In this document: positions 4,601-20,524 of the stretch, piece after piece
Numbering within the stretch: the first letter of the stretch is position 1
Layout: each line of letters opens with the position of its first letter
Assembly: GCA_019308995.1 (NCBI GenBank)
Contig: JAFDHD010000009.1
Span: 4,524 to 68,523 of the forward strand
Direction: 5' to 3'
Length of the DNA: 64,000 nucleotides
From: Deltaproteobacteria bacterium
GTDB taxonomy: Bacteria; Desulfobacterota; Desulfarculia; Adiutricales; JAFDHD01
Notes under the pieces: generated by a model
What the model was told of the DNA's origin: nothing
The model's database searches: none
The model's input: the letters and a program-made list of their open reading frames with translations, nothing else
Translations under genes and position numbers: made by a program

Positions 4601-5216
4601 TTAAACCATTTATAAAACTTGAGTTTTATTGGTTTAAAATTCATCCAAAGACACTCCTGTTTGATGCCTTTCGAAGAATTGCAGATTTTTAAGGGACCAC
4701 CTTATATTCTGTTCCAATCAAAATAAAGTTCATCTTGAATTAACCATCATTGATTTGCAACTCCGTTTATTTCTGTTTCAAGTAATTATATTTCATTTAA
4801 GTGATACAATCCCTTATTTAATTGCCAAGCATAGTGTTCAGTGCCTACACTAAGTTAACCCCCCCTTACTCCTCCACCTTCACCAACTCCCTGGGACGAA
4901 CCAAATGACCTAACCGATGATGCGAATCTCACTGATATGGGTTTCTTCGGGCGAGTACGGCCCGGTTGTCACTGATTTCCTTTCCGCATTCTTTGCGGTT
5001 TATCAAGGTCATAGTTCACCAGGGAAGTGAAAAAGGCTAATTATTACGTTAATATAATTTTCATAGCTGATACAAGGGAAAAGGTATCCAGGCAACACCC
5101 TGAATACCTTCAACCCTGTTAAATAAGGCTGACTACAGAAGTAAAGTTGTCAGGGCCAATGCCTTATAAACCCTGGCCGAGCTGGCCGGGAAGGATGATT
5201 CTCTTCCCCAGGCCCC

Positions 5217-5843
5217 CTACTCCTTCTTTTTAACGACTACGGTGATTTCATCCTTCAGGGCGTTGGCAAACTTCTCAGCGTCCGCTTCGGAACCGACAAT
5301 GGCCCCATAGTGCATCGGCACGGCGATCTTGGGCTTGATGGTCCGCGCCGCCTCAACACCCTGGTCGGCGTCCATGACATACGTCCCGGACACGGGGATC
5401 AGGGCGATGTCCACCTCGAGGCCCTGCATCTCCGGGATCAAGTCCGCGTCACCGGTGTGGTAAATCTTGACCCCGTCCAGCTCGACGATAAAGCCCAGCC
5501 AGTTATTGGCCTGAGGATGAAAATCTTTATCAACATTGTAAGAAGGCAGCGCCTGGACCTTGACTCCGGCCACCTCGGTGCTCTCCCCGGGTTTTAAGAC
5601 CTTGACATTTCCGGACAGCTTTTTGGCTGAATCCGGCTCCGTAATGACCACCGTGTCGTCCTTGGTTATCTTGGCGACATCTTCCGGCGAACAGTGGTCG
5701 AAGTGCTCATGGGTGATGAAAATCAGATCGGCTTTAGGGCCGCCGCTGATCTGAAAAGGATCGAAATAGACGACCTTGGAGCCAGCCACGTAAAAGCCGT
5801 CGTGTCCCAGCCAGTGGATGTTTTCAATCATTTTTTCTGGCAT
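5217..5843 (-). CDS. MBL-fold metallo-hydrolase
   Basis: HEHFDH (HxHxDH) motif and a beta-lactamase-fold length of about 208 aa. Confidence 0.75.
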   Translation of the reverse strand: MPEKMIENIHWLGHDGFYVAGSKVVYFDPFQISGGPKADLIFITHEHFDHCSPEDVAKITKDDTVVITEPDSAKKLSGNVKVLKPGESTEVAGVKVQALPSYNVDKDFHPQANNWLGFIVELDGVKIYHTGDADLIPEMQGLEVDIALIPVSGTYVMDADQGVEAARTIKPKIAVPMHYGAIVGSEADAEKFANALKDEITVVVKKKE

Positions 5844-6008
5844 CTTACCCTCCTGTCTGTGGTTACCTCCGAACTGCTCGTGAGGCCTCGGTTGGGTGAC
5901 GAAAAGACGCGCCTCAGTCCCGATTTCAGCCTCGGTTTCTTAACCGCACAAAATGCTTCTGCTTAAGATTTTAGCTCCTGACAACCCTTTTTATCAAGCC
6001 AGGCCAAC

Positions 6009-6539
6009 TCAATCGGAAAAGAGCCGCCTGAACTCCGCCGCAAAGACATCAAAGCTCTCCTGACCATAAAGGCAAAACACGACTTTGTCCAAAGTGGTCT
6101 GCCTTTCCAGGTATCCCTTGACCGCACCGAGCATGATCTTGGCGGCGCGGTCCACGGGAAAGCCGAAGATGCCGGTGCTAATAGCCGGGAAAGCAATGCT
6201 CTTCATGCCTTTTTCATCCGCACGTTTTAGACTGTTCAGCGTGGCCTGTTCCAGTTTATGATCTTCATCACCTTCGCCCATGCGCGGACCAACGGCGTGA
6301 ATGACGTACTTGGCCTTGAGGTCGCCTCCCCCAGTGACAACCGCGCCCCCGACATATGTGCCGCCAATCTTGTCGCACTCTTCCTGGATGGACGGCCCGC
6401 CCTTGGTGCGGACGGCTCCGGCAACTCCGCCTCCCAGGATTAGGCTGGCATTGGCCGCGTTGACAATCGCCTCGGTGTCCATTTCAGTGATATCGTCTTG
6501 AGTAAGCTCCAGCTCGGTTTGGTTGACTTTAGCCTTCAT
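6009..6539 (-). CDS. macro domain protein (O-acetyl-ADP-ribose deacetylase / ADP-ribose binding, YmdB-like)
   Basis: AIVNAANASLILGGGVAGAV and AFPAISTGIFGFP motifs. The ATG at 6539 has the SD GAGGGTGA upstream, and the alternative GTG at 6548 overlaps the upstream stop. Confidence 0.8.
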   Translation of the reverse strand: MKAKVNQTELELTQDDITEMDTEAIVNAANASLILGGGVAGAVRTKGGPSIQEECDKIGGTYVGGAVVTGGGDLKAKYVIHAVGPRMGEGDEDHKLEQATLNSLKRADEKGMKSIAFPAISTGIFGFPVDRAAKIMLGAVKGYLERQTTLDKVVFCLYGQESFDVFAAEFRRLFSD

Positions 6540-6544
6540 GGCTT

Positions 6545-7921
6545 TCACCCTCTTTTTGTCTTGAACTTTTTATCGGGCCTTATCCGCGGACTAAAATACT
6601 GGATCATACAATCACGGACAAGGGCGTACGCCCTGACACCCAGCTTATCGCGGTAATGAACCACCAGGACCGCCAGGGCAATCCTGTCGGTCGTTCCTTT
6701 TCTCCGGGCAAAGGAGACGAACCAATCCACCTTCCGGTCCAGGTCGTCGTTGATGCTCCCGGATTTACCTCCGATTTCCAGCCTGGACAGTACCGGGTGA
6801 TAATTTACATCTTTAAATGATTGGTGAGCCGTGCCTTTGGTGATGGTGGCCTGCATCATTTTCCTCATTTCCCGAACGGTCTGACTAGAGATGACCCGCT
6901 TCATGAGTACAGGCTGGTGGCGGTAGTAGATGTTATTATCCTGGTCAAAGACCTCCCTGACTATGGTTGGCTCCATAATAAGACCGTTATTGACGATGGC
7001 GGCGGCGAGCATGGCCCCGTGAAGAGGCGAAAGCATGGTGGTGCGGTTAAAACCTGAAGCAATCTCAGCCAGCCGGAAGTAGTCCTCATCAGGCAGACTG
7101 AACCGGCTCGGTTCAACCGGCATCTCGAAATGAATGGGCTGGTTGAAATAAAACCGCCGGGCGAACTCCTCCAGGGTTTCGGGCCCAAGGGTAAAAGCCC
7201 CCAGCTTTCCGAAAACGATGTTGATGCTTTGGGCAAAGCTTTCCTTGAGTGTGACCTGATGCCGCCCGCTTCGAACGTCGGGTTTGAGGTTCTGACGGTA
7301 CAGGGTGTGCTTGCGGCCGTCATAAGCCAAGGTAGAACCGGAGGTCAGACTCCTCGCCTCCACCGCGGCGGCCGCGGTGATGATCTTGAACAGACTCGCC
7401 GCCGGAAAGGAACTCTGGAGGTTCAGGTTGACCGGTCGGTGGTCGGCATTATAGCTGGCCATGGTCAGAACATCCCCGTTGGCAGGGTTGAGGACCACCA
7501 GGGCCACCGAGTTGGCCCGGGCCCGGGGAATCGTGGACATGGCCCACCTCTGCAGCTCAGGAGCGAGCGTGGTGTGGACAAATAATTCACGGCCAGCCTC
7601 GTTCCTAATCCGAAAGGAGCGCAGTTCGTCAGGCCTGAAGGAATGAGGGCCGATCAGCTTGGCGAGGCGGTCCTTTGTCAGTTCCCCCTCCGGGACGGAA
7701 CTGGGGTCAATCTCCTGAAGGATAAGGACTTGCGGCGGGCTCTTCGATCTTTCAAAGCAGGTCAAAGAAAAGCGGCCGGTAAAGACGGCGCCGGCCGTAA
7801 AAATCGCTAAGCCTAAAATGGCGCAAAGGATTACAGCCCTGTATAAACCTTTACGAGGCTGAGGCCTTTTCAGAGTGCGTAAGGGTCGGTGCTGATTTAC
7901 ACGCCGGCTTTGCAAGTCCAT
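6545..7921 (-). CDS. penicillin-binding protein (class B-like transpeptidase) with an N-terminal membrane anchor
   Basis: SxxK (ASLFK), SxN (SIN) and KSG motifs occur in the correct order, and there is an N-terminal TM helix. Confidence 0.75.
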   Translation of the reverse strand: MDLQSRRVNQHRPLRTLKRPQPRKGLYRAVILCAILGLAIFTAGAVFTGRFSLTCFERSKSPPQVLILQEIDPSSVPEGELTKDRLAKLIGPHSFRPDELRSFRIRNEAGRELFVHTTLAPELQRWAMSTIPRARANSVALVVLNPANGDVLTMASYNADHRPVNLNLQSSFPAASLFKIITAAAAVEARSLTSGSTLAYDGRKHTLYRQNLKPDVRSGRHQVTLKESFAQSINIVFGKLGAFTLGPETLEEFARRFYFNQPIHFEMPVEPSRFSLPDEDYFRLAEIASGFNRTTMLSPLHGAMLAAAIVNNGLIMEPTIVREVFDQDNNIYYRHQPVLMKRVISSQTVREMRKMMQATITKGTAHQSFKDVNYHPVLSRLEIGGKSGSINDDLDRKVDWFVSFARRKGTTDRIALAVLVVHYRDKLGVRAYALVRDCMIQYFSPRIRPDKKFKTKRG

Positions 7922-14793: not shown

Positions 14794-15125
14794 TACTTAA
14801 CTCCTCCAGGATGGCTGCAGGTTCGGAGCCGCCCACATGCGCCCTGGCTGTAAAGATGATTGAGATCAATTCGTTTCCGGGATTATCTCCTGTTCCTCCG
14901 GCCCGGTCAAGTCTCAGTTTTTTTCTCACCCCAAACATTATAACCTTTCACTGCTGAATGCGCAGAAAACGAAGGAAAACATCCTGCCCGTTATAAGCCA
15001 TGCCCGGAAATTTAACGATTAAATATAACGGCTCTTTGAAAAAATCTGTGGGTTGTCAAACCATATTTTTATCTCCGGAGCGCCGGCCGGTCTGCGGCGG
15101 CGCAATTCCGACGAGCTTTTTAAAA

Positions 15126-15214
15126 CGAATGGCAAAATTATGTTCCTTTTGGCTTCCTGGTTTCAGAACCTGGATTCCTGCGAAAGCAGGAATCCAGAAA
15201 GGAATATATTTATG
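15126..15214. repeat. MITE-like palindromic intergenic element, copy B
   Basis: The left end CGAATGGCAAAATTATGTTCC (15126-15146) and the right end GGAATATATTTATG (15201-15214) match at 11 of 14 positions as an inverted repeat. A GC hairpin sits in the centre. Confidence 0.35.
15170..15197. repeat. perfect 12-bp stem hairpin with a GAAA tetraloop
   Basis: CTGGATTCCTGC-GAAA-GCAGGAATCCAG. No T-run follows, so it is not a canonical terminator. Confidence 0.85.
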
Positions 15215-15393
15215 AGAACTACTCTAATAAAACTTTAATGATGCCAGGGTGTTAAGTGAGTTCCTTCAATAATTTCATATTTAATCTGAGCAGGAATTGT
15301 CTTTTTTCAAGGCATTTGATACATTTACTCATAAGTTGAACTCAGGGGCTCTTTGGCCTCCAGGTATTTTTAAAATAAAGTAAAAGCGGCAGA

Positions 15394-16299
15394 ATGATGA
15401 ACAGAGTAAACACAATGACCATACTTGGCCCGATGCGGATACCCTTTTTAATTCTAACCCCGGCATGCGTTCTGCTCGGAGCAGGCACCGCCGCCTGGTC
15501 TGGCACTCCGTTGAACCTGACTTATCTCGTCCTGGCCTTCATTGGCGCCCTCGCAGCCCATATCAGCGTTAACGCCCTCAACGAATATCATGACTTCAAA
15601 AGCGGTTTGGATTTCAGAACGCAGCGAACCCCGTTCAGCGGCGGCAGCGGAACCCTGCCTCGCAACCCTGAAAAGGCTCATTATGCGTTGATTATAGGTC
15701 TAGTCACCCTGGCGGTTATAATCATTATCGGGATATACTTCCTGTACATTCAGGGGCTGTGGCTTTTGCCTCTGGGAATCTTCGGCCTGATTCTCGTGGC
15801 CGCTTATACTAGGCTGCTTACTCGAAACCCCTTTTTCTGCCTGATCGCCCCTGGGCTGGGGTTTGGCGTTCTAATGGTCATGGGCACTCATTTTGCCCTC
15901 ACTGGCTCCTACTCTTGGACGTCGTTTATCGCTTCCCTTGTCCCGTTTTTCCTGGTGAGTGACCTCTTACTTTTAAATCAGTTCCCAGATGTTGAAGCGG
16001 ATAGGGAAGCCGGGCGAAGGCATATATTGATTACCATGGGCACAAAGGCTGGGGTGAGAGTTTATGGATCGTTCCTGGCCGGGGCCTATGCCGTGGTCAT
16101 ACTGGGGTATTTCACCGGCGCCCTTCCCTTGGCGGGGTTTTTGGCCCTGGCGACGCTTGTCCTTGCCATTCCTGTGATCAGGGGCGCCGCCCGGTATGCC
16201 GATGATATTCCGAAACTAATACCGTACCTGAGCATGAATGTTATCATCATTATTGTAACCCCTGTCTTGCTCGCCATCGGCCTGTTCATTGGTCGGTGA
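15394..16299 (+). CDS. UbiA-family aromatic prenyltransferase (MenA-like), polytopic membrane protein
   Basis: NALNEYHDFKSGLD and DVEADREAGRRH Asp-rich motifs, with about 8-9 hydrophobic helices. Confidence 0.75.
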   Translation: MMNRVNTMTILGPMRIPFLILTPACVLLGAGTAAWSGTPLNLTYLVLAFIGALAAHISVNALNEYHDFKSGLDFRTQRTPFSGGSGTLPRNPEKAHYALIIGLVTLAVIIIIGIYFLYIQGLWLLPLGIFGLILVAAYTRLLTRNPFFCLIAPGLGFGVLMVMGTHFALTGSYSWTSFIASLVPFFLVSDLLLLNQFPDVEADREAGRRHILITMGTKAGVRVYGSFLAGAYAVVILGYFTGALPLAGFLALATLVLAIPVIRGAARYADDIPKLIPYLSMNVIIIIVTPVLLAIGLFIGR

Positions 16300-16699: not shown

Positions 16700-18139
16700 A
16701 TGATCAAGAGTGGAGAAGATTACATCAACAGTCTGAAGAACTGGGGAAACGTAATATACTATAACGGGAAACGGGTCGAGGATATTACCGCCCACCCCGG
16801 CTTCCTCCCGCATATAAATTCAGCCGCCCAAACATATGACATGGCCCTTCAGCCTGAACACGAGGACCTGCTGACGGCCACGAGCCATCTGACAGGCCGC
16901 AAAATCAGCCGCTTTACGCATATTCATCAGTCAGTGGACGACCTGATCAAGAAGGTCCAGATGCTCCGGCTGATCGCACACCAGACCGGGAGCTGCTTCC
17001 AACGCTGCGTGGGCTTTGACGGGCTCAACGCCACCTACATGACAACCTATGACATTGATCAAAAACATGGCACCGAATACCACGCTCGTTTCATCGAATA
17101 CCTCCAGATGGTCCAGGAAGAGAACCTCATGATCGTGGGCGGGATGACCGACCCCAAGGGAGACCGGTCCAAGCCTCCCAGCCAGCAGGCGGACCCGGAC
17201 GTCTTCGTGCATGTGGTCGAAAGGAAGAAAGACGGGATCGTCATCCGGGGCGCCAAGGCCCACCAGACCGGAGGCGCCAACAGTCACGAGATACTGATTA
17301 TGCCAACCCAGACCATGCGCGGCGGGGATGAAGATTTTTCCTTAACCTGTGCCGTCTCGCTCAATGCCCCTGGTATTTTTCAAATCTTCGGAAGGCAAAC
17401 CAATGAAGAACGGAAGTTCGAATCGGGCCTGGACGTTGGCAACGCTGAGTATGGTCTGGTTGGAGGTGAGACCCTGATCGTCTTTGAAGACGTCTTTGTG
17501 CCTTGGGAGCGGGTCTTCATGTGCGGGGAGATTGGTTTTTCCGGGCTGCTGGTCGAACGGTTCGCCACCATGCACCGCCAGAATTACGGTGGGTGCAAGG
17601 GGGGTGTTTCTGACGTTATGATTGGCGCTTCAGCCCTGGCTTCCGAATACCAAGGCACGGACCGGGCCTCTCATATCCGGGACAAGATCGCCGAAATGAT
17701 GCACCTGGCCGAGACTATTTACTGCTGCTCCGTGGCCTGCTCAGCCATGGGCTTCAAGACCCCCAGCGGGGCATTCTACCCCGATCCTCTTCTGGCCAAC
17801 TGCTGCAAACAAAACGTCTCCCGTCACATTTACGAGATCGCTCGCCTGGCGCACGACGTGGCCGGCGGTATCGTGGCCACCATGCCTTTTGAAGCGGATC
17901 TGATGAGTCCGGAAATCGGCTCATACGTAAAAAAGTTCCTGGTCGGGGTAGAAGGCGTTTCAACCGAGAACCGGCTCAAGGTCTTGCGGCTTATCGAAAA
18001 CATGTCGGGCGGAACGGCCCTGGTCGAATCCATGCACGGCGCCGGCTCACCTCAGTCCCAGAAAATCATGTACCAGAGACTGGGCAAGATAGATATGAAA
18101 AAGAAGCTGGCCAGGAGACTGGCTGGAATTTCTGACTGA
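16700..18139 (+). CDS. abfD: 4-hydroxybutyryl-CoA dehydratase / vinylacetyl-CoA isomerase family protein
   Basis: HpaB/AbfD-family N-terminus (GEDYINSL). By my count, C99, C103, H292 and C299 sit exactly at the [4Fe-4S] ligand positions I recall for Clostridium aminobutyricum AbfD. Confidence 0.8.
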   Translation: MIKSGEDYINSLKNWGNVIYYNGKRVEDITAHPGFLPHINSAAQTYDMALQPEHEDLLTATSHLTGRKISRFTHIHQSVDDLIKKVQMLRLIAHQTGSCFQRCVGFDGLNATYMTTYDIDQKHGTEYHARFIEYLQMVQEENLMIVGGMTDPKGDRSKPPSQQADPDVFVHVVERKKDGIVIRGAKAHQTGGANSHEILIMPTQTMRGGDEDFSLTCAVSLNAPGIFQIFGRQTNEERKFESGLDVGNAEYGLVGGETLIVFEDVFVPWERVFMCGEIGFSGLLVERFATMHRQNYGGCKGGVSDVMIGASALASEYQGTDRASHIRDKIAEMMHLAETIYCCSVACSAMGFKTPSGAFYPDPLLANCCKQNVSRHIYEIARLAHDVAGGIVATMPFEADLMSPEIGSYVKKFLVGVEGVSTENRLKVLRLIENMSGGTALVESMHGAGSPQSQKIMYQRLGKIDMKKKLARRLAGISD

Positions 18140-18249
18140 AGAACTTTGATGATAGGGATGCTTACTAGGATACAATAAAATTAGTGCCGTGCTGTCGCGA
18201 ATATATTGAAATCAATGATGAAGTATCGGAATTTCGAAAAAATATGGGA

Positions 18250-18726
18250 TCAATCTATTGGGCCGAAATAAATTATTTGATTTCCAGGAGCCACACCAGG
18301 GTCAAGTCCAAAACGTAACTGTTCGAGAAAGCCACAATAACCGAGTACAACTGGTCCTGGCCACTCATGGGAGATAAATACACGACCTTCTACCTCAAGA
18401 TCACATCCCCAGTCCGGTTTCGCCAATAACGAAATATTTAGCGTGTACAAATCCCCCTTAAGCAATCCATGCCGCGTAGTCATTTCTAAAGACCCAACCG
18501 CAGACCCAAGTTGATCTTCGAGAAGCTCTGCTATTTCACCACCAATCACTGACCATTCTGCGCCTGTATCCAAGAGCGCCAGTTCTCTCTCAGGTAAATT
18601 GCCTAACCTGCATTGGACGGCAACTAAAAGCCGTGAAGGTCCATGCTTGTAATTAAAAAAGTATTGAGCAGCCCCTGTATTCCATAGTGTTAAACCATCA
18701 ATTGTCTGCTTAAAAAGCTGACCCAT
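18250..18726 (-). CDS. retropepsin-like (clan AA) aspartic protease, cassette gene 3
   Basis: ALLDTGAEWSVIG (hydrophobic-hydrophobic-DTGA) plus the C-terminal VVLGYCGFLEQLRFGLD, which resembles the LGxDfL element of bacterial Asp_protease_2-type proteins. The size of 158 aa fits a homodimeric retropepsin. Confidence 0.6.
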   Translation of the reverse strand: MGQLFKQTIDGLTLWNTGAAQYFFNYKHGPSRLLVAVQCRLGNLPERELALLDTGAEWSVIGGEIAELLEDQLGSAVGSLEMTTRHGLLKGDLYTLNISLLAKPDWGCDLEVEGRVFISHEWPGPVVLGYCGFLEQLRFGLDPGVAPGNQIIYFGPID

Positions 18727-18732
18727 GCCGTT

Positions 18733-19554
18733 CTACTCCTCAATAAGAACAAATAAGGCTCCATTGAGACAACCTTCATCTTTCAGGGCATGGTGTAATT
18801 TAACTCTACTTGTATCATTACCAAGTAAAGCACCATCTTTGAGAGCTACCCATTGCCCTTTATACTTAGAGGCATTTTTGCGTAACCATAAAGCATCTTT
18901 TTTAAGGTCGCCGCCAGTTGCAATTTCTCGTGGCTTCGTCCTTGGTTCGGCTAATACTTTACGCCATGTATCTAGTTTAGTGGACAGGCCCGGTGGAACT
19001 TGAATTGAAGATAATAAGTGTCGGGCATCAACGACTCGCCCATCCTCAACAAGATCCTTCACAATTGCTAATTCACGCTCTACGCTCACAAGCACAGAAG
19101 TAGAGCTTTCCGCTATTGCTGCTTCGTATTCTCCCCAAAGGTTAAATTGAATAAATCCCAAAGGTTCCAAATAGGCTAAGATTTGTTTAAACCTCTCGGA
19201 AATAGAATAAATACAACTTTGCTTCCAATCTTCTAGAACTTCGGTTTCGGTTTTGTACCATTCAACAAGGCTCCTCGACCGCATCATCGGAAAAGAAAAA
19301 TTTTTAAAGACGATTGTTCCCGCTTCTTGTAAATTGACAACTTTATATTGAGATGTTGCTGCGGTAGAGCATACAGTCCAAAAATCACTAAAGCAACTCT
19401 TCCCATACTCTTGCAGCACAGAATAGTCTGTAGAAGCACCCGTCTTTACCGCATCTAATATAACAGCCGCATCCTGTCCCATAACGCCAGTGCTTGCCGT
19501 CAATAATTTAGCCCGTGGCGTTAGTGACATATTATTTGCAGTAAATTGAGTCAT
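18733..19554 (-). CDS. hypothetical protein with a C-terminal DUF5678-like domain, cassette gene 2
   Basis: The C-terminal KYKGQWVALKDGALLGNDTSRVKLHHALKDEG..ALFVLIEE matches my recollection of the DUF5678 pattern (kGkWVAi.dg.vv..g.d...l). I do not recognise the roughly 200-aa N-terminal region. Confidence 0.45.
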   Translation of the reverse strand: MTQFTANNMSLTPRAKLLTASTGVMGQDAAVILDAVKTGASTDYSVLQEYGKSCFSDFWTVCSTAATSQYKVVNLQEAGTIVFKNFSFPMMRSRSLVEWYKTETEVLEDWKQSCIYSISERFKQILAYLEPLGFIQFNLWGEYEAAIAESSTSVLVSVERELAIVKDLVEDGRVVDARHLLSSIQVPPGLSTKLDTWRKVLAEPRTKPREIATGGDLKKDALWLRKNASKYKGQWVALKDGALLGNDTSRVKLHHALKDEGCLNGALFVLIEE

Positions 19555-20348
19555 TTTATGTCACCTTTATCGGCAATTTCCTTTGCTAAGATTACTAACT
19601 CATCGAACAAATCCGAAAGTACGTTCTTAGGTAATTCACCGGAAAATTCCTGAGAGGTATTCACGTCCAACGCCAAACGACACGCACTTATAGTATCACG
19701 AGGATGTGTTGGAGTCACTGGTTCTCTGTTGCTAAACTCCACATTAAGGCCTTGTCTCCATATGCTGGATACTGACCATGTTGAAAGGCGGTTAATCTGA
19801 AGGTTTTCCGACCATGATTTGGACAAGCGGGGGCGGTTAATCTGATAGAGAAAGTCGGACGGACCTATTGGATCTAAATCAACATCAACTGTTGGGAGAT
19901 ATTCCGATATTTGCCTGTATCCTTCCTCTCGATCCTCTACTCGTTGAAGCAAAATGGCTCCAAAAGCTAAGCGTTTAATCGGCGGGCAAATCTTTAACCA
20001 TTGATGCATTAATTTGCAGAAATTTTCCGCTGCGCCGGGAAACAACCCTATTATTGGCAAGCCCTCCTCGATCTTATCCGTATCAGCAGCATAGAGCCAA
20101 TCAATTCTGTTTGGATGGGTCTCCACAATCAACTTACCATTTTCAAATGCACCTTCATCTCGATGAAACCCCTGTTTTGGATAAGAAGTCCTTGTTTCTG
20201 GCGACTCCTTTATTAATTCATCCCATACCGTAAGCTCTCTTTCAACCATGGACACATGAAAAACTGTAACTCTTAGGGATTCAATCTGCCAAACCTTCAG
20301 TTCCGATTTACTGTTTTCATGCAAATCAGATTTTGTACCTTTATTCAT
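19551..20348 (-). CDS. hypothetical protein, cassette gene 1 (possibly distant TIGR04255-like)
   Basis: Its stop overlaps the start of gene 2 by 4 nt. No catalytic motif is recognised. The layout (N-terminal beta-like IESLRVTVFH, mid RLAFGAILLQRV, C-terminal LALDVNT...LFDELV) only loosely resembles TIGR04255. Confidence 0.4.
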   Translation of the reverse strand: MNKGTKSDLHENSKSELKVWQIESLRVTVFHVSMVERELTVWDELIKESPETRTSYPKQGFHRDEGAFENGKLIVETHPNRIDWLYAADTDKIEEGLPIIGLFPGAAENFCKLMHQWLKICPPIKRLAFGAILLQRVEDREEGYRQISEYLPTVDVDLDPIGPSDFLYQINRPRLSKSWSENLQINRLSTWSVSSIWRQGLNVEFSNREPVTPTHPRDTISACRLALDVNTSQEFSGELPKNVLSDLFDELVILAKEIADKGDIK

Positions 20349-20391
20349 GACCGAACCTTAGCCTTCTTTTTTGTAGAAAGATTTTTATTTA

Positions 20392-20420
20392 AGAATATCA
20401 CATTAATAGGAAAAACTCAA
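20392..20420 (-). promoter_or_regulatory. candidate sigma70-type promoter for the three-gene cassette
   Basis: TTGAGT-N17-TATTCT lies on the minus strand, about 45 nt upstream of the 20348 start. Each hexamer matches only 4 of 6 positions. Confidence 0.3.
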
Positions 20421-20524
20421 AATTACCTTAGAAGGTTGTTCCTAGAATCTAGTATTTATATTTTCGTTTAAATCTGAGAATAATTATATTTGAACATTAA
20501 TCCTTTAACTAACAGTTTGATCTC

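Follow-up and report, generated by a model that had tools for sequence, protein, structure and literature searches.

The first gene of the toxin-antitoxin (TA) systems omega-epsilon-zeta and PaaR-PaaA-ParE encodes a protein that is distinct from both the antitoxin and the toxin. These first-gene products are small ribbon-helix-helix (RHH) or helix-turn-helix (HTH) regulators, and each serves one TA family. The Panacea domain (DUF4065) is reportedly a hyperpromiscuous antitoxin domain, a single conserved element which is combined with many unrelated toxins. In toxin-antitoxin-chaperone (TAC) systems a SecB-like chaperone recognizes an extension of the antitoxin, joins different TA pairs and serves as a phage sensor, and this accessory protein can be recombined with other warheads (10.1101/2024.02.24.581848). 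Here we describe an islet of three genes, named A, B and C, on contig JAFDHD010000009.1 of a Deltaproteobacteria bacterium (assembly GCA_019308995.1). The whole stretch of 64,000 nt that was analyzed is called the window. TA modules that include a third, accessory component are known as a kind of system, while the components and the arrangement found here are not. In our judgement the chances are about even that the islet represents a horizontally acquired, self-contained, tripartite TA-like cassette in which, by analogy, C would act as effector, its cognate inhibitor would be B, and A would serve as an accessory protein of promiscuous kind.

With type II TA modules such as MazEF, VapBC and Xre-RES the islet shares small, adjacent, co-directional and overlapping genes, a putative inhibitor encoded upstream of the putative effector, a patchy distribution and a foreign composition. 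Furthermore, MazF, RES and, below threshold, PIN proteins occupy the position of C in sister cassettes. In contrast to type II modules, the middle proteins are devoid of canonical antitoxin or DNA-binding domains, an extra conserved gene comes first, and C is a protease and not a nuclease, NADase or kinase. The TAC systems (SecB-like chaperone with HigBA, MqsRA, HicAB or CmdTA) also consist of three genes with a conserved accessory protein that goes with several unrelated pairs. In both cases the pairs also occur as two-gene versions that lack the accessory gene. The TAC antitoxin bears an extra region at its C-terminus (ChAD), of which a poorly conserved extra region at the N-terminus may be the counterpart in the A-linked proteins of the antitoxin slot. 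The longer N-terminal regions of A-linked B proteins echo this chaperone-addiction extension, but the extension of B is unconserved and distant B proteins without A are long as well. A differs from SecB in sequence and fold, it is encoded first whereas the TAC chaperone is encoded last, and the toxin would be an aspartic protease. The parallel to TAC would thus be functional only. Unlike omega and PaaR, A shows no known DNA-binding domain and accompanies many types of pairs. Panacea is the antitoxin itself in two-gene systems, whereas A forms a third protein of its own and each toxin comes with a different middle protein.

All three genes of the islet are located on the minus strand (Table 1) and are annotated in the source assembly as hypothetical proteins JRI95_03235, 03240 and 03245. 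An earlier annotation made from the sequence alone (first-pass annotation) had given the same reading frames, the same overlap of A and B and the same gap of 6 nt between B and C. A GAGGAG Shine-Dalgarno sequence sits in the end of B. The block of 2,385 nt that comprises the islet (18140–20524) has a GC content of 0.410 compared to 0.536 for the whole window. This is the lowest value among all windows of the same size in the 64 kb (z = −5.4 versus windows outside the block). The GC content at third codon positions (GC3) amounts to 0.39 for A, 0.33 for B and 0.35 for C versus 0.60–0.70 in five neighbouring genes. Hence, the AT-rich block with AT-rich non-coding flanks that had been estimated by hand counts was borne out by calculation. 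The islet is horizontally acquired, with the foreign composition observed here.

The first-pass annotation had assigned C to the retropepsin-type aspartic proteases on the basis of two signature elements, ALLDTGAEW and VVLGYCGFLEQL. Both are indeed present, and in an alignment of 30 homologues the residues L51, D53, T54, G55, G87, G91, G129 and D142 are invariant. Altogether 93 homologues were found, with a very constant length of ~158 aa. C of the window matches the family PF13975 with 13.5 bits (E = 0.11), which is below the Pfam cut-off of 28.2, while 13 of the 30 relatives match PF13975 (best E = 7e-6) and 12 match PF13650 (best E = 2.5e-7). Consequently, C belongs to a divergent retropepsin subfamily. 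With the family profile, the region around DTG was also matched in the proteases of HTLV-1 (E = 7.6e-4) and HIV-1. An AlphaFold model of C calculated from the family alignment reached a mean predicted local distance difference test (pLDDT) value of 81.2, with low confidence for the first ~30 residues. Foldseek assigned this model with a probability of 1.00 to FIV protease (template modelling (TM) score 0.69), to HIV-1 protease (TM score up to 0.73, root mean square deviation (rmsd) 1.9 Å) and to the retropepsin-like protease APRc of Rickettsia conorii (5c9f). For these three proteins the TM scores on the target were 0.59–0.73, with an rmsd of ~2–2.7 Å over ~95–100 residues. According to the model, C has a single-lobe retropepsin fold with intact invariant catalytic residues, so that the original assignment of the 158-aa protein is corroborated at the level of predicted structure. 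Like other members of Pfam clan AA (PF13975, PF13650, PF00077; HIV-1, FIV and HTLV-1 proteases, APRc, Ddi1) C carries DTGA and a later hydrophobic-hydrophobic-Gly element. Unlike these proteins, it is free-standing and cytoplasmic-looking and is neither part of a polyprotein nor a membrane protein. It possesses ~45 extra N-terminal residues, modelled with low confidence, and is always paired with a gene of the DUF5678 type described below.

A whole-protein word-indexed search with B returned B itself as the sole match. B is not an orphan, however, since it ends in a conserved module that is also found in the genes directly upstream of C homologues. The last ~115 residues of B align with these genes at 32–42% identity in a first alignment, and the module alone at 40–57%. 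The module starts out helical, continues with an ATG motif that is nearly invariant (consensus SATGGD; B of the window reads I-A-T-G-G-D) and has a beta-rich end. B of the window matches DUF5678 (PF18929) with 16.8 bits over only 17 residues, below the cut-off of 23.2, whereas two relatives exceed this cut-off with 27.1 bits (L119) and 25.3 bits (L118; L numbers denote the compared loci, positions after a colon refer to the locus). Six further relatives scored between 15 and 23 bits. Judged by these family matches, the module is probably a divergent DUF5678 domain. The DUF5678-like end proposed in the first-pass annotation is thus backed by two relatives and weak for the window protein itself. 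No relatives of the module with a solved structure were found. Homology of its helical segment to the HEAT repeats of the main cluster of middle proteins, discussed below, was rejected (hhalign probability 0.17). The N-terminal region of B was unalignable among the ten family members compared.

Taken over all data, the gene next downstream of B encodes a C homologue in 40 of 54 instances. The remaining 14 instances mostly precede contig ends or divergent protease-like genes. A metagenome scan with the B module returned 45 loci, only one of which showed A upstream of B. The gap between B and C ranges from −4 to +10 nt in close homologues, and the adjacency is also found for distant pairs (E ~1e-10 for B and ~1e-20 for C). 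Since the pair is kept in 40 of 54 instances and mostly without A, B and C form an autonomous two-gene module. B proteins linked to A are 176–273 aa long, compared to 118–198 aa for close homologues without A (Mann-Whitney p = 0.0012).

Several individual loci of this pair deserve mention. One metagenome contig carries two B-C pairs in tandem (L102:3767-6054), a duplication of the two-gene module. Downstream of distant DUF5678-type genes, protease-like proteins of ~140 aa were observed in which D-P-G-A replaces D-T-G-A (L115:1512-1937, L118:4224-4691, L125:4197-4610 and L128:630-902). The protein of L118 weakly matches Asp_protease_2. Going by their altered motif, these relatives may be inactive or of altered chemistry, with the pairing still kept. 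The gene following a close B homologue in L088 (L088:1076-1246) does not encode a protease. Its first eight residues, MRQLFKQT, match the N-terminus of C, and the sequence then continues into a minimal-nucleotidyltransferase-like motif (GSHARGDYKDSSDYDIL) before the contig ends. From its sequence, this may be a recombinant third-gene slot. Finally, in L004:6797-8766 and L005:6797-8005 a B-C pair without A is located beside genes for an AAA_21/SMC_N ATPase, TumE and HVO_A0114 family proteins and a gene resembling that of a Y1 transposase; together they make up a small cluster of genes of the mobile or defence type.

Gene A belongs to a much larger family. In accordance with the first-pass statement that its product has no recognizable catalytic motif, A showed no match in Pfam, NCBIfam, PHROGs or PADLOC. 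An indexed search of 5.8 billion proteins yielded 283 homologues, and in an exhaustive profile search 3,681 clusters (50% identity) reached E ≤ 0.001, of which 2,009 had values below 1e-30. Scanning of species-representative genomes with A led to 80 loci in more than 10 phyla, among them Desulfobacterota, Chloroflexota, Cyanobacteria, Nitrospirota, Acidobacteriota, Planctomycetota, Acidithiobacillus, Alpha-, Beta- and Gammaproteobacteria and others. At 72 of these loci the stop codon of A overlaps the start of the middle gene, by 4 nt in 65 and by 1 nt in 7 cases. The full layout of A, a middle gene for 120–345 aa and a third gene for 100–250 aa is found at 68 of the 80 loci. The genes downstream of A are diverse, with 21 BLAST clusters of middle genes and 17 of third genes. 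Middle and third genes fall into matching clusters and are thus exchanged as pairs. B and C follow A at seven loci including the window. Besides the window, the trio occurs among others in metagenome-assembled genomes (MAGs) of Desulfonema limicola, Syntrophales and Gammaproteobacteria and in the complete genome of Desulfonema magnum 4be13 (L009; NZ_CP061800.1, 1693956–1704690), where A, B and C occupy positions 4986–5738, 5735–6433 and 6437–6916 of the locus, respectively. The proposal that the three genes form a unit is therefore correct in that the trio is kept as neighbours at six other genome or metagenome loci. It has to be modified in that the basic unit is the B-C pair, with A as a separate, larger family that precedes many pairs.

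Known toxins were found among the third genes. MazF/PemK is encoded in the third position of L055, L056 and L059 (E = 8e-17) and RES in that of L068 (33.9 bits, above the cut-off). The third genes of L025, L033 and L038 match PIN with 22 bits, below the cut-off of 23.6, and weak matches to HEPN and Fic/DOC occur in single loci. Thus, C occupies the slot of known TA toxins. The largest type of pair (42–48 loci) consists of a HEAT-repeat protein and an unknown protein of ~170 aa, with a HEAT_2 match in 41 of 78 middle proteins. The ~170-aa third-gene family (42 loci within L007–L084, for example L007:6400-6933 and L012:6399-6914) always follows the HEAT-repeat protein and shows the consensus ...NxLSVWxIxDD...WHxDLxEL... 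with invariant S43 and H106. No match was obtained for it in Pfam, NCBIfam, PADLOC or PDB sequences, and it is a candidate for a new effector family. A rough neighbour-joining tree calculated for A shows the HEAT-linked forms in all its parts and the protease-linked forms mostly in one clade, which as a tree pattern is consistent with an ancestral pair that was displaced by other pairs. A degenerate-looking cassette was observed in a Chloroflexota MAG (L021:5764-6069), where the A homologue is directly followed by a C-like fragment of 101 aa and the B gene is missing.

The N-terminal regions of the middle proteins are unalignable and Ser/Thr-rich. The motif E-[SN]-S-[ST] was detected in 16 of 79 middle proteins (genes within L007–L086, for example L012:5771-6430 and L019:5738-6175), versus a mean of 2.6 and a maximum of 8 in shuffled sequences (n = 500) and in only 1 of 148 flanking proteins. 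It occurs in three unrelated types of middle protein (HEAT-type, DUF5678-type and PIN-partner type) and is missing at the aligned position in B homologues without A. This motif could be a docking site, a cleavage site or merely a helix cap.

The cassettes are found in very different surroundings. The nearest neighbours of 75 cassettes comprise 148 proteins with 143 different Pfam families, the commonest being phage integrase (4), a restriction-endonuclease domain (3), HNH (2) and AAA_21 (2). The cassette is autonomous and occurs in arbitrary genomic contexts, and embedding in a metabolic or prophage operon was not found. No clear defence-island context was seen for these neighbours. The absence of conserved neighbours together with the deviant GC and GC3 values fits a small, mobile, selfish module.

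The structure of A was modelled with AlphaFold (pLDDT 86.8, predicted TM score 0.84). The model consists of two halves, each with a sheet of 4–5 strands followed by a long helix, in the order beta-alpha-beta4-alpha, twice. Only the topology repeats, because the two halves show no sequence similarity (hhalign probability 0.4), and an internal sequence duplication was therefore rejected. The best-conserved residues R26, R81, D83, W84, R126, Y168, Q169, N171, R172, N186, R187, R224, E226, D228 and N230 are located on beta strands, and their positions in the model suggest a conserved polar sheet surface. Foldseek revealed no convincing structural relative. A relationship to AdoMetDC/prozyme was not accepted despite a probability of 0.98, as the TM score was 0.28 and the rmsd ~19 Å. 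An unnamed viral protein in BFVD gave a weak match (TM score 0.52), and Bet v1/START proteins and EspG chaperones were matched with low probability. A SecB-like nature of A was likewise rejected, with no SecB at E ≤ 10 in a profile search of PDB sequences nor among the top 50 Foldseek matches in the PDB. The N-terminal extensions of a few long A homologues look like mis-called starts.

From the model and gene order of A another function may be considered, in which B and C are the TA-like pair and A is a DNA-binding transcriptional regulator of the operon, like omega or PaaR. We regard this as unlikely. A regulator would offset the missing DNA-binding domain of the middle proteins, which show no recognizable RHH, HTH or AbrB domains, and A is always the first gene. 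By our own reading of its topology, A recalls the fold of the TATA-box-binding protein (TBP), and TBPs of giant viruses appear among the weak Foldseek matches at ranks 8 and 15. Moreover, conservation within A is highest for Arg, Asn, Gln and Tyr residues located on beta strands. The TBP matches, however, reach a probability of only 0.33–0.44 and a TM score of ~0.2, and the best match in the PDB is the mentioned AdoMetDC/prozyme of another fold class. The region upstream of the cassette revealed no conserved operator-like repeat, typical TA regulators are much smaller than A, and the translational coupling by 4 nt suggests a stoichiometric protein partner instead.

In the window, the islet is flanked by genes for an AbfD-like 4-hydroxybutyryl-CoA dehydratase (PDB 1u8v, E = 8e-167) and for a Crp/Fnr regulator (E = 2e-34), the two neighbours named before. 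A scan of the upstream region for the sigma-70 consensus yielded sites no more numerous than in shuffled sequence, so that the placement of the promoter there is presumptive. No terminator-like hairpin was detected within 18140–18249, the nearest one being located at 18110–18123 inside the 3' end of abfD. With respect to insertion scars, there is no tRNA gene within 10 kb of the islet and no integrase that would mark the insertion. Flanking direct repeats were not convincing, as only pairs of 11–18 nt at chance level were found. A second, shorter dip in GC content (0.39) at 15000–15400, near the start of a UbiA-like prenyltransferase gene (15394–16299), is unrelated to the cassette.

Table 1: Features of the three-gene islet, with positions in the 64,000 nt window.
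Feature	Position	Strand	Description
Gene A	19551–20348	minus	265 aa; large uncharacterized family; conserved first gene of modular three-gene cassettes
Gene B	18733–19554	minus	273 aa; protease partner with C-terminal DUF5678-type module
Gene C	18250–18726	minus	158 aa; predicted retropepsin-fold aspartic protease; putative effector/toxin
Overlap of A stop and B start (ATGA)	19551–19554	minus	4 nt, read from the sequence; translational coupling
B N-terminal region, aa 1–159	19078–19554	minus	variable; no homologue found
E150-S-S-T-S154	19096–19110	minus	B aa 150–154; copy of the E-[SN]-S-[ST] motif
B C-terminal module, aa 160–273	18733–19077	minus	helical segment, ATG motif and probable divergent DUF5678 domain (family-level matches)
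Codons GAT ACA GGC	18562–18570	minus	catalytic D53-T54-G55 of C, read from the sequence
Upstream intergenic region	20349–20524	minus	176 nt, GC 0.261; Crp/Fnr stop codon to A start; presumed cassette promoter
3' non-coding flank	18140–18249	minus	GC 0.345; between C and the convergent abfD

For a TA-like cassette with A as an accessory protein, the roles of the three products can be proposed as follows. C is most likely a proteolytic effector, because it shares its slot with TA toxins and its catalytic residues are conserved. B is most likely the inhibitor of C, because its coupling to C is strict whether A is present or not. A most likely acts on the middle protein, because the pair can do without it, it joins many types of pairs and its translation is coupled to that of the middle gene. 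As other retropepsins do, C would homodimerize to form one active site, and it would serve as the proteolytic effector in the toxin slot. The conserved C-terminal DUF5678-type module of B would bind C and keep it inactive, with the near-invariant ATG-containing linker as a candidate pseudo-substrate or cleavage site. A would be made first, in translational coupling with the middle gene, and may act on the middle protein at its variable N-terminal region, where it could be a stabilizer or chaperone or else a trigger-sensor. In this way A would place the antitoxin under an additional control. Its function would resemble that of the SecB-type chaperone in TAC, although the folds are unrelated and the order of the genes is reversed. 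Upon loss or titration of A or B, C would be released and would cleave cellular (or invader) proteins. The toxicity of C, its inhibition by B, the interaction of A and B and the trigger are what we infer; the gene layout, the modelled fold of C, the coupling of B to C, the coupling of A to swappable pairs including known toxins and the foreign composition are observed.

The strict coupling of B and C would also be expected if no toxin system were present and C were a protease dedicated to the processing of B (or A), for instance one that releases the DUF5678 domain or a peptide during regulated proteolysis or maturation. The near-invariant, exposed ATG-containing linker between the helical segment of B and its DUF5678 domain points in this direction. 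In addition, bacterial retropepsin-like enzymes such as the Rickettsia protease APRc are, to our knowledge, processing enzymes and not TA toxins. Nevertheless, we consider a processing function rather improbable. Sister cassettes fill the slot of C with MazF, RES and, more weakly, PIN, HEPN or Fic proteins, which are growth-arresting toxins and not maturases. The patchy distribution, the variable neighbours and the foreign composition fit a selfish module, and the D-P-G relatives keep the pairing, which argues for binding over catalysis on B.

The exchange of effector and partner as pairs is also a property of polymorphic toxin-immunity loci for inter-bacterial competition, in which A would be a secretion adaptor or chaperone of the effector. 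The weak Foldseek matches between A and the EspG chaperones that belong to type VII secretion (E = 0.04–0.24) and the weak match of one middle protein to a CdiI immunity family could be taken in this sense. The EspG matches, however, do not exceed a probability of 0.15, the third genes encode small stand-alone domains without trafficking or secretion domains, and not a single secretion-system gene was present among the 148 neighbours. The order of inhibitor and then toxin in overlapping genes is the pattern of type II TA modules. A function in inter-bacterial competition is therefore very improbable. A last reading, in which the islet would be horizontally transferred DNA that has lost its function and is decaying, is hardly credible, because the strongly foreign composition, the N-terminal half of B without homologue and the existence of degenerate cassettes such as L021 are opposed by three intact reading frames with coupled starts and Shine-Dalgarno sequences and by the presence of every invariant residue of the respective families in A and C of the window.

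A number of points weigh against the assignment of the islet as a tripartite TA-like cassette. Neither A nor B nor C matched PADLOC-DB v2 at E ≤ 1, and tblastn searches with A and C found no match among the records of 50,697 phages and 72,556 plasmids. The searchable literature yielded no TA toxin that is an aspartic protease, so that the assignment has no precedent. The middle proteins beside MazF, RES and PIN have no recognizable canonical antitoxin domain, and the term antitoxin slot consequently describes a position only. The commonest partner pair of A, the HEAT-repeat protein with the ~170-aa protein, contains no known toxin. A is not SecB-like by sequence or fold. The putative docking region lies in the unconserved N-terminal part, and distant B proteins without A are as long as those linked to A.

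The first-pass annotation had offered a conflict module, either of the TA or of the anti-phage type. Of these two, the TA-like nature is favoured by the analogy of the gene slot, while an anti-phage defence role is possible but unsupported. Among 70 third-gene proteins compared to PADLOC only scattered single matches were obtained (HEPN_IX, PDC-M05B, PDC-S04, SoFic), and 2.9 million viral contigs contained one weak match to A and none to C. The view that the trio is no named system was upheld, as no PADLOC model matches the cassette. Furthermore, nothing in the searchable literature and libraries links a retropepsin-like protease or DUF5678 to a TA function, and nothing there describes the A family.

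We tentatively put forward a more far-reaching proposal, which we hold to be possible though on the doubtful side. A might represent a new, widespread class of third component, unrelated to SecB, that acts as stabilizer or trigger-sensor for interchangeable pairs in more than 10 phyla. The TAC principle would then have been invented twice, independently. The pair of DUF5678 and retropepsin proteins might at the same time be the first TA module with an aspartic protease toxin.

The main value of these results lies in the A family and its modular architecture, more than in the single islet. If the TA-like assignment is true, the so far unannotated A family with its thousands of clusters would gain a testable role as modular partner of TA-like pairs, in a natural plug-and-play architecture comparable to the TAC systems. 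In that case a candidate new toxin family would also be at hand in the pair of HEAT-repeat protein and ~170-aa protein. Experiments are feasible with Desulfonema magnum 4be13, a cultured organism with a complete genome and the same trio. Retroviral-type aspartic proteases would join the toxin and effector domains of bacteria, with DUF5678 as a dedicated inhibitor family.

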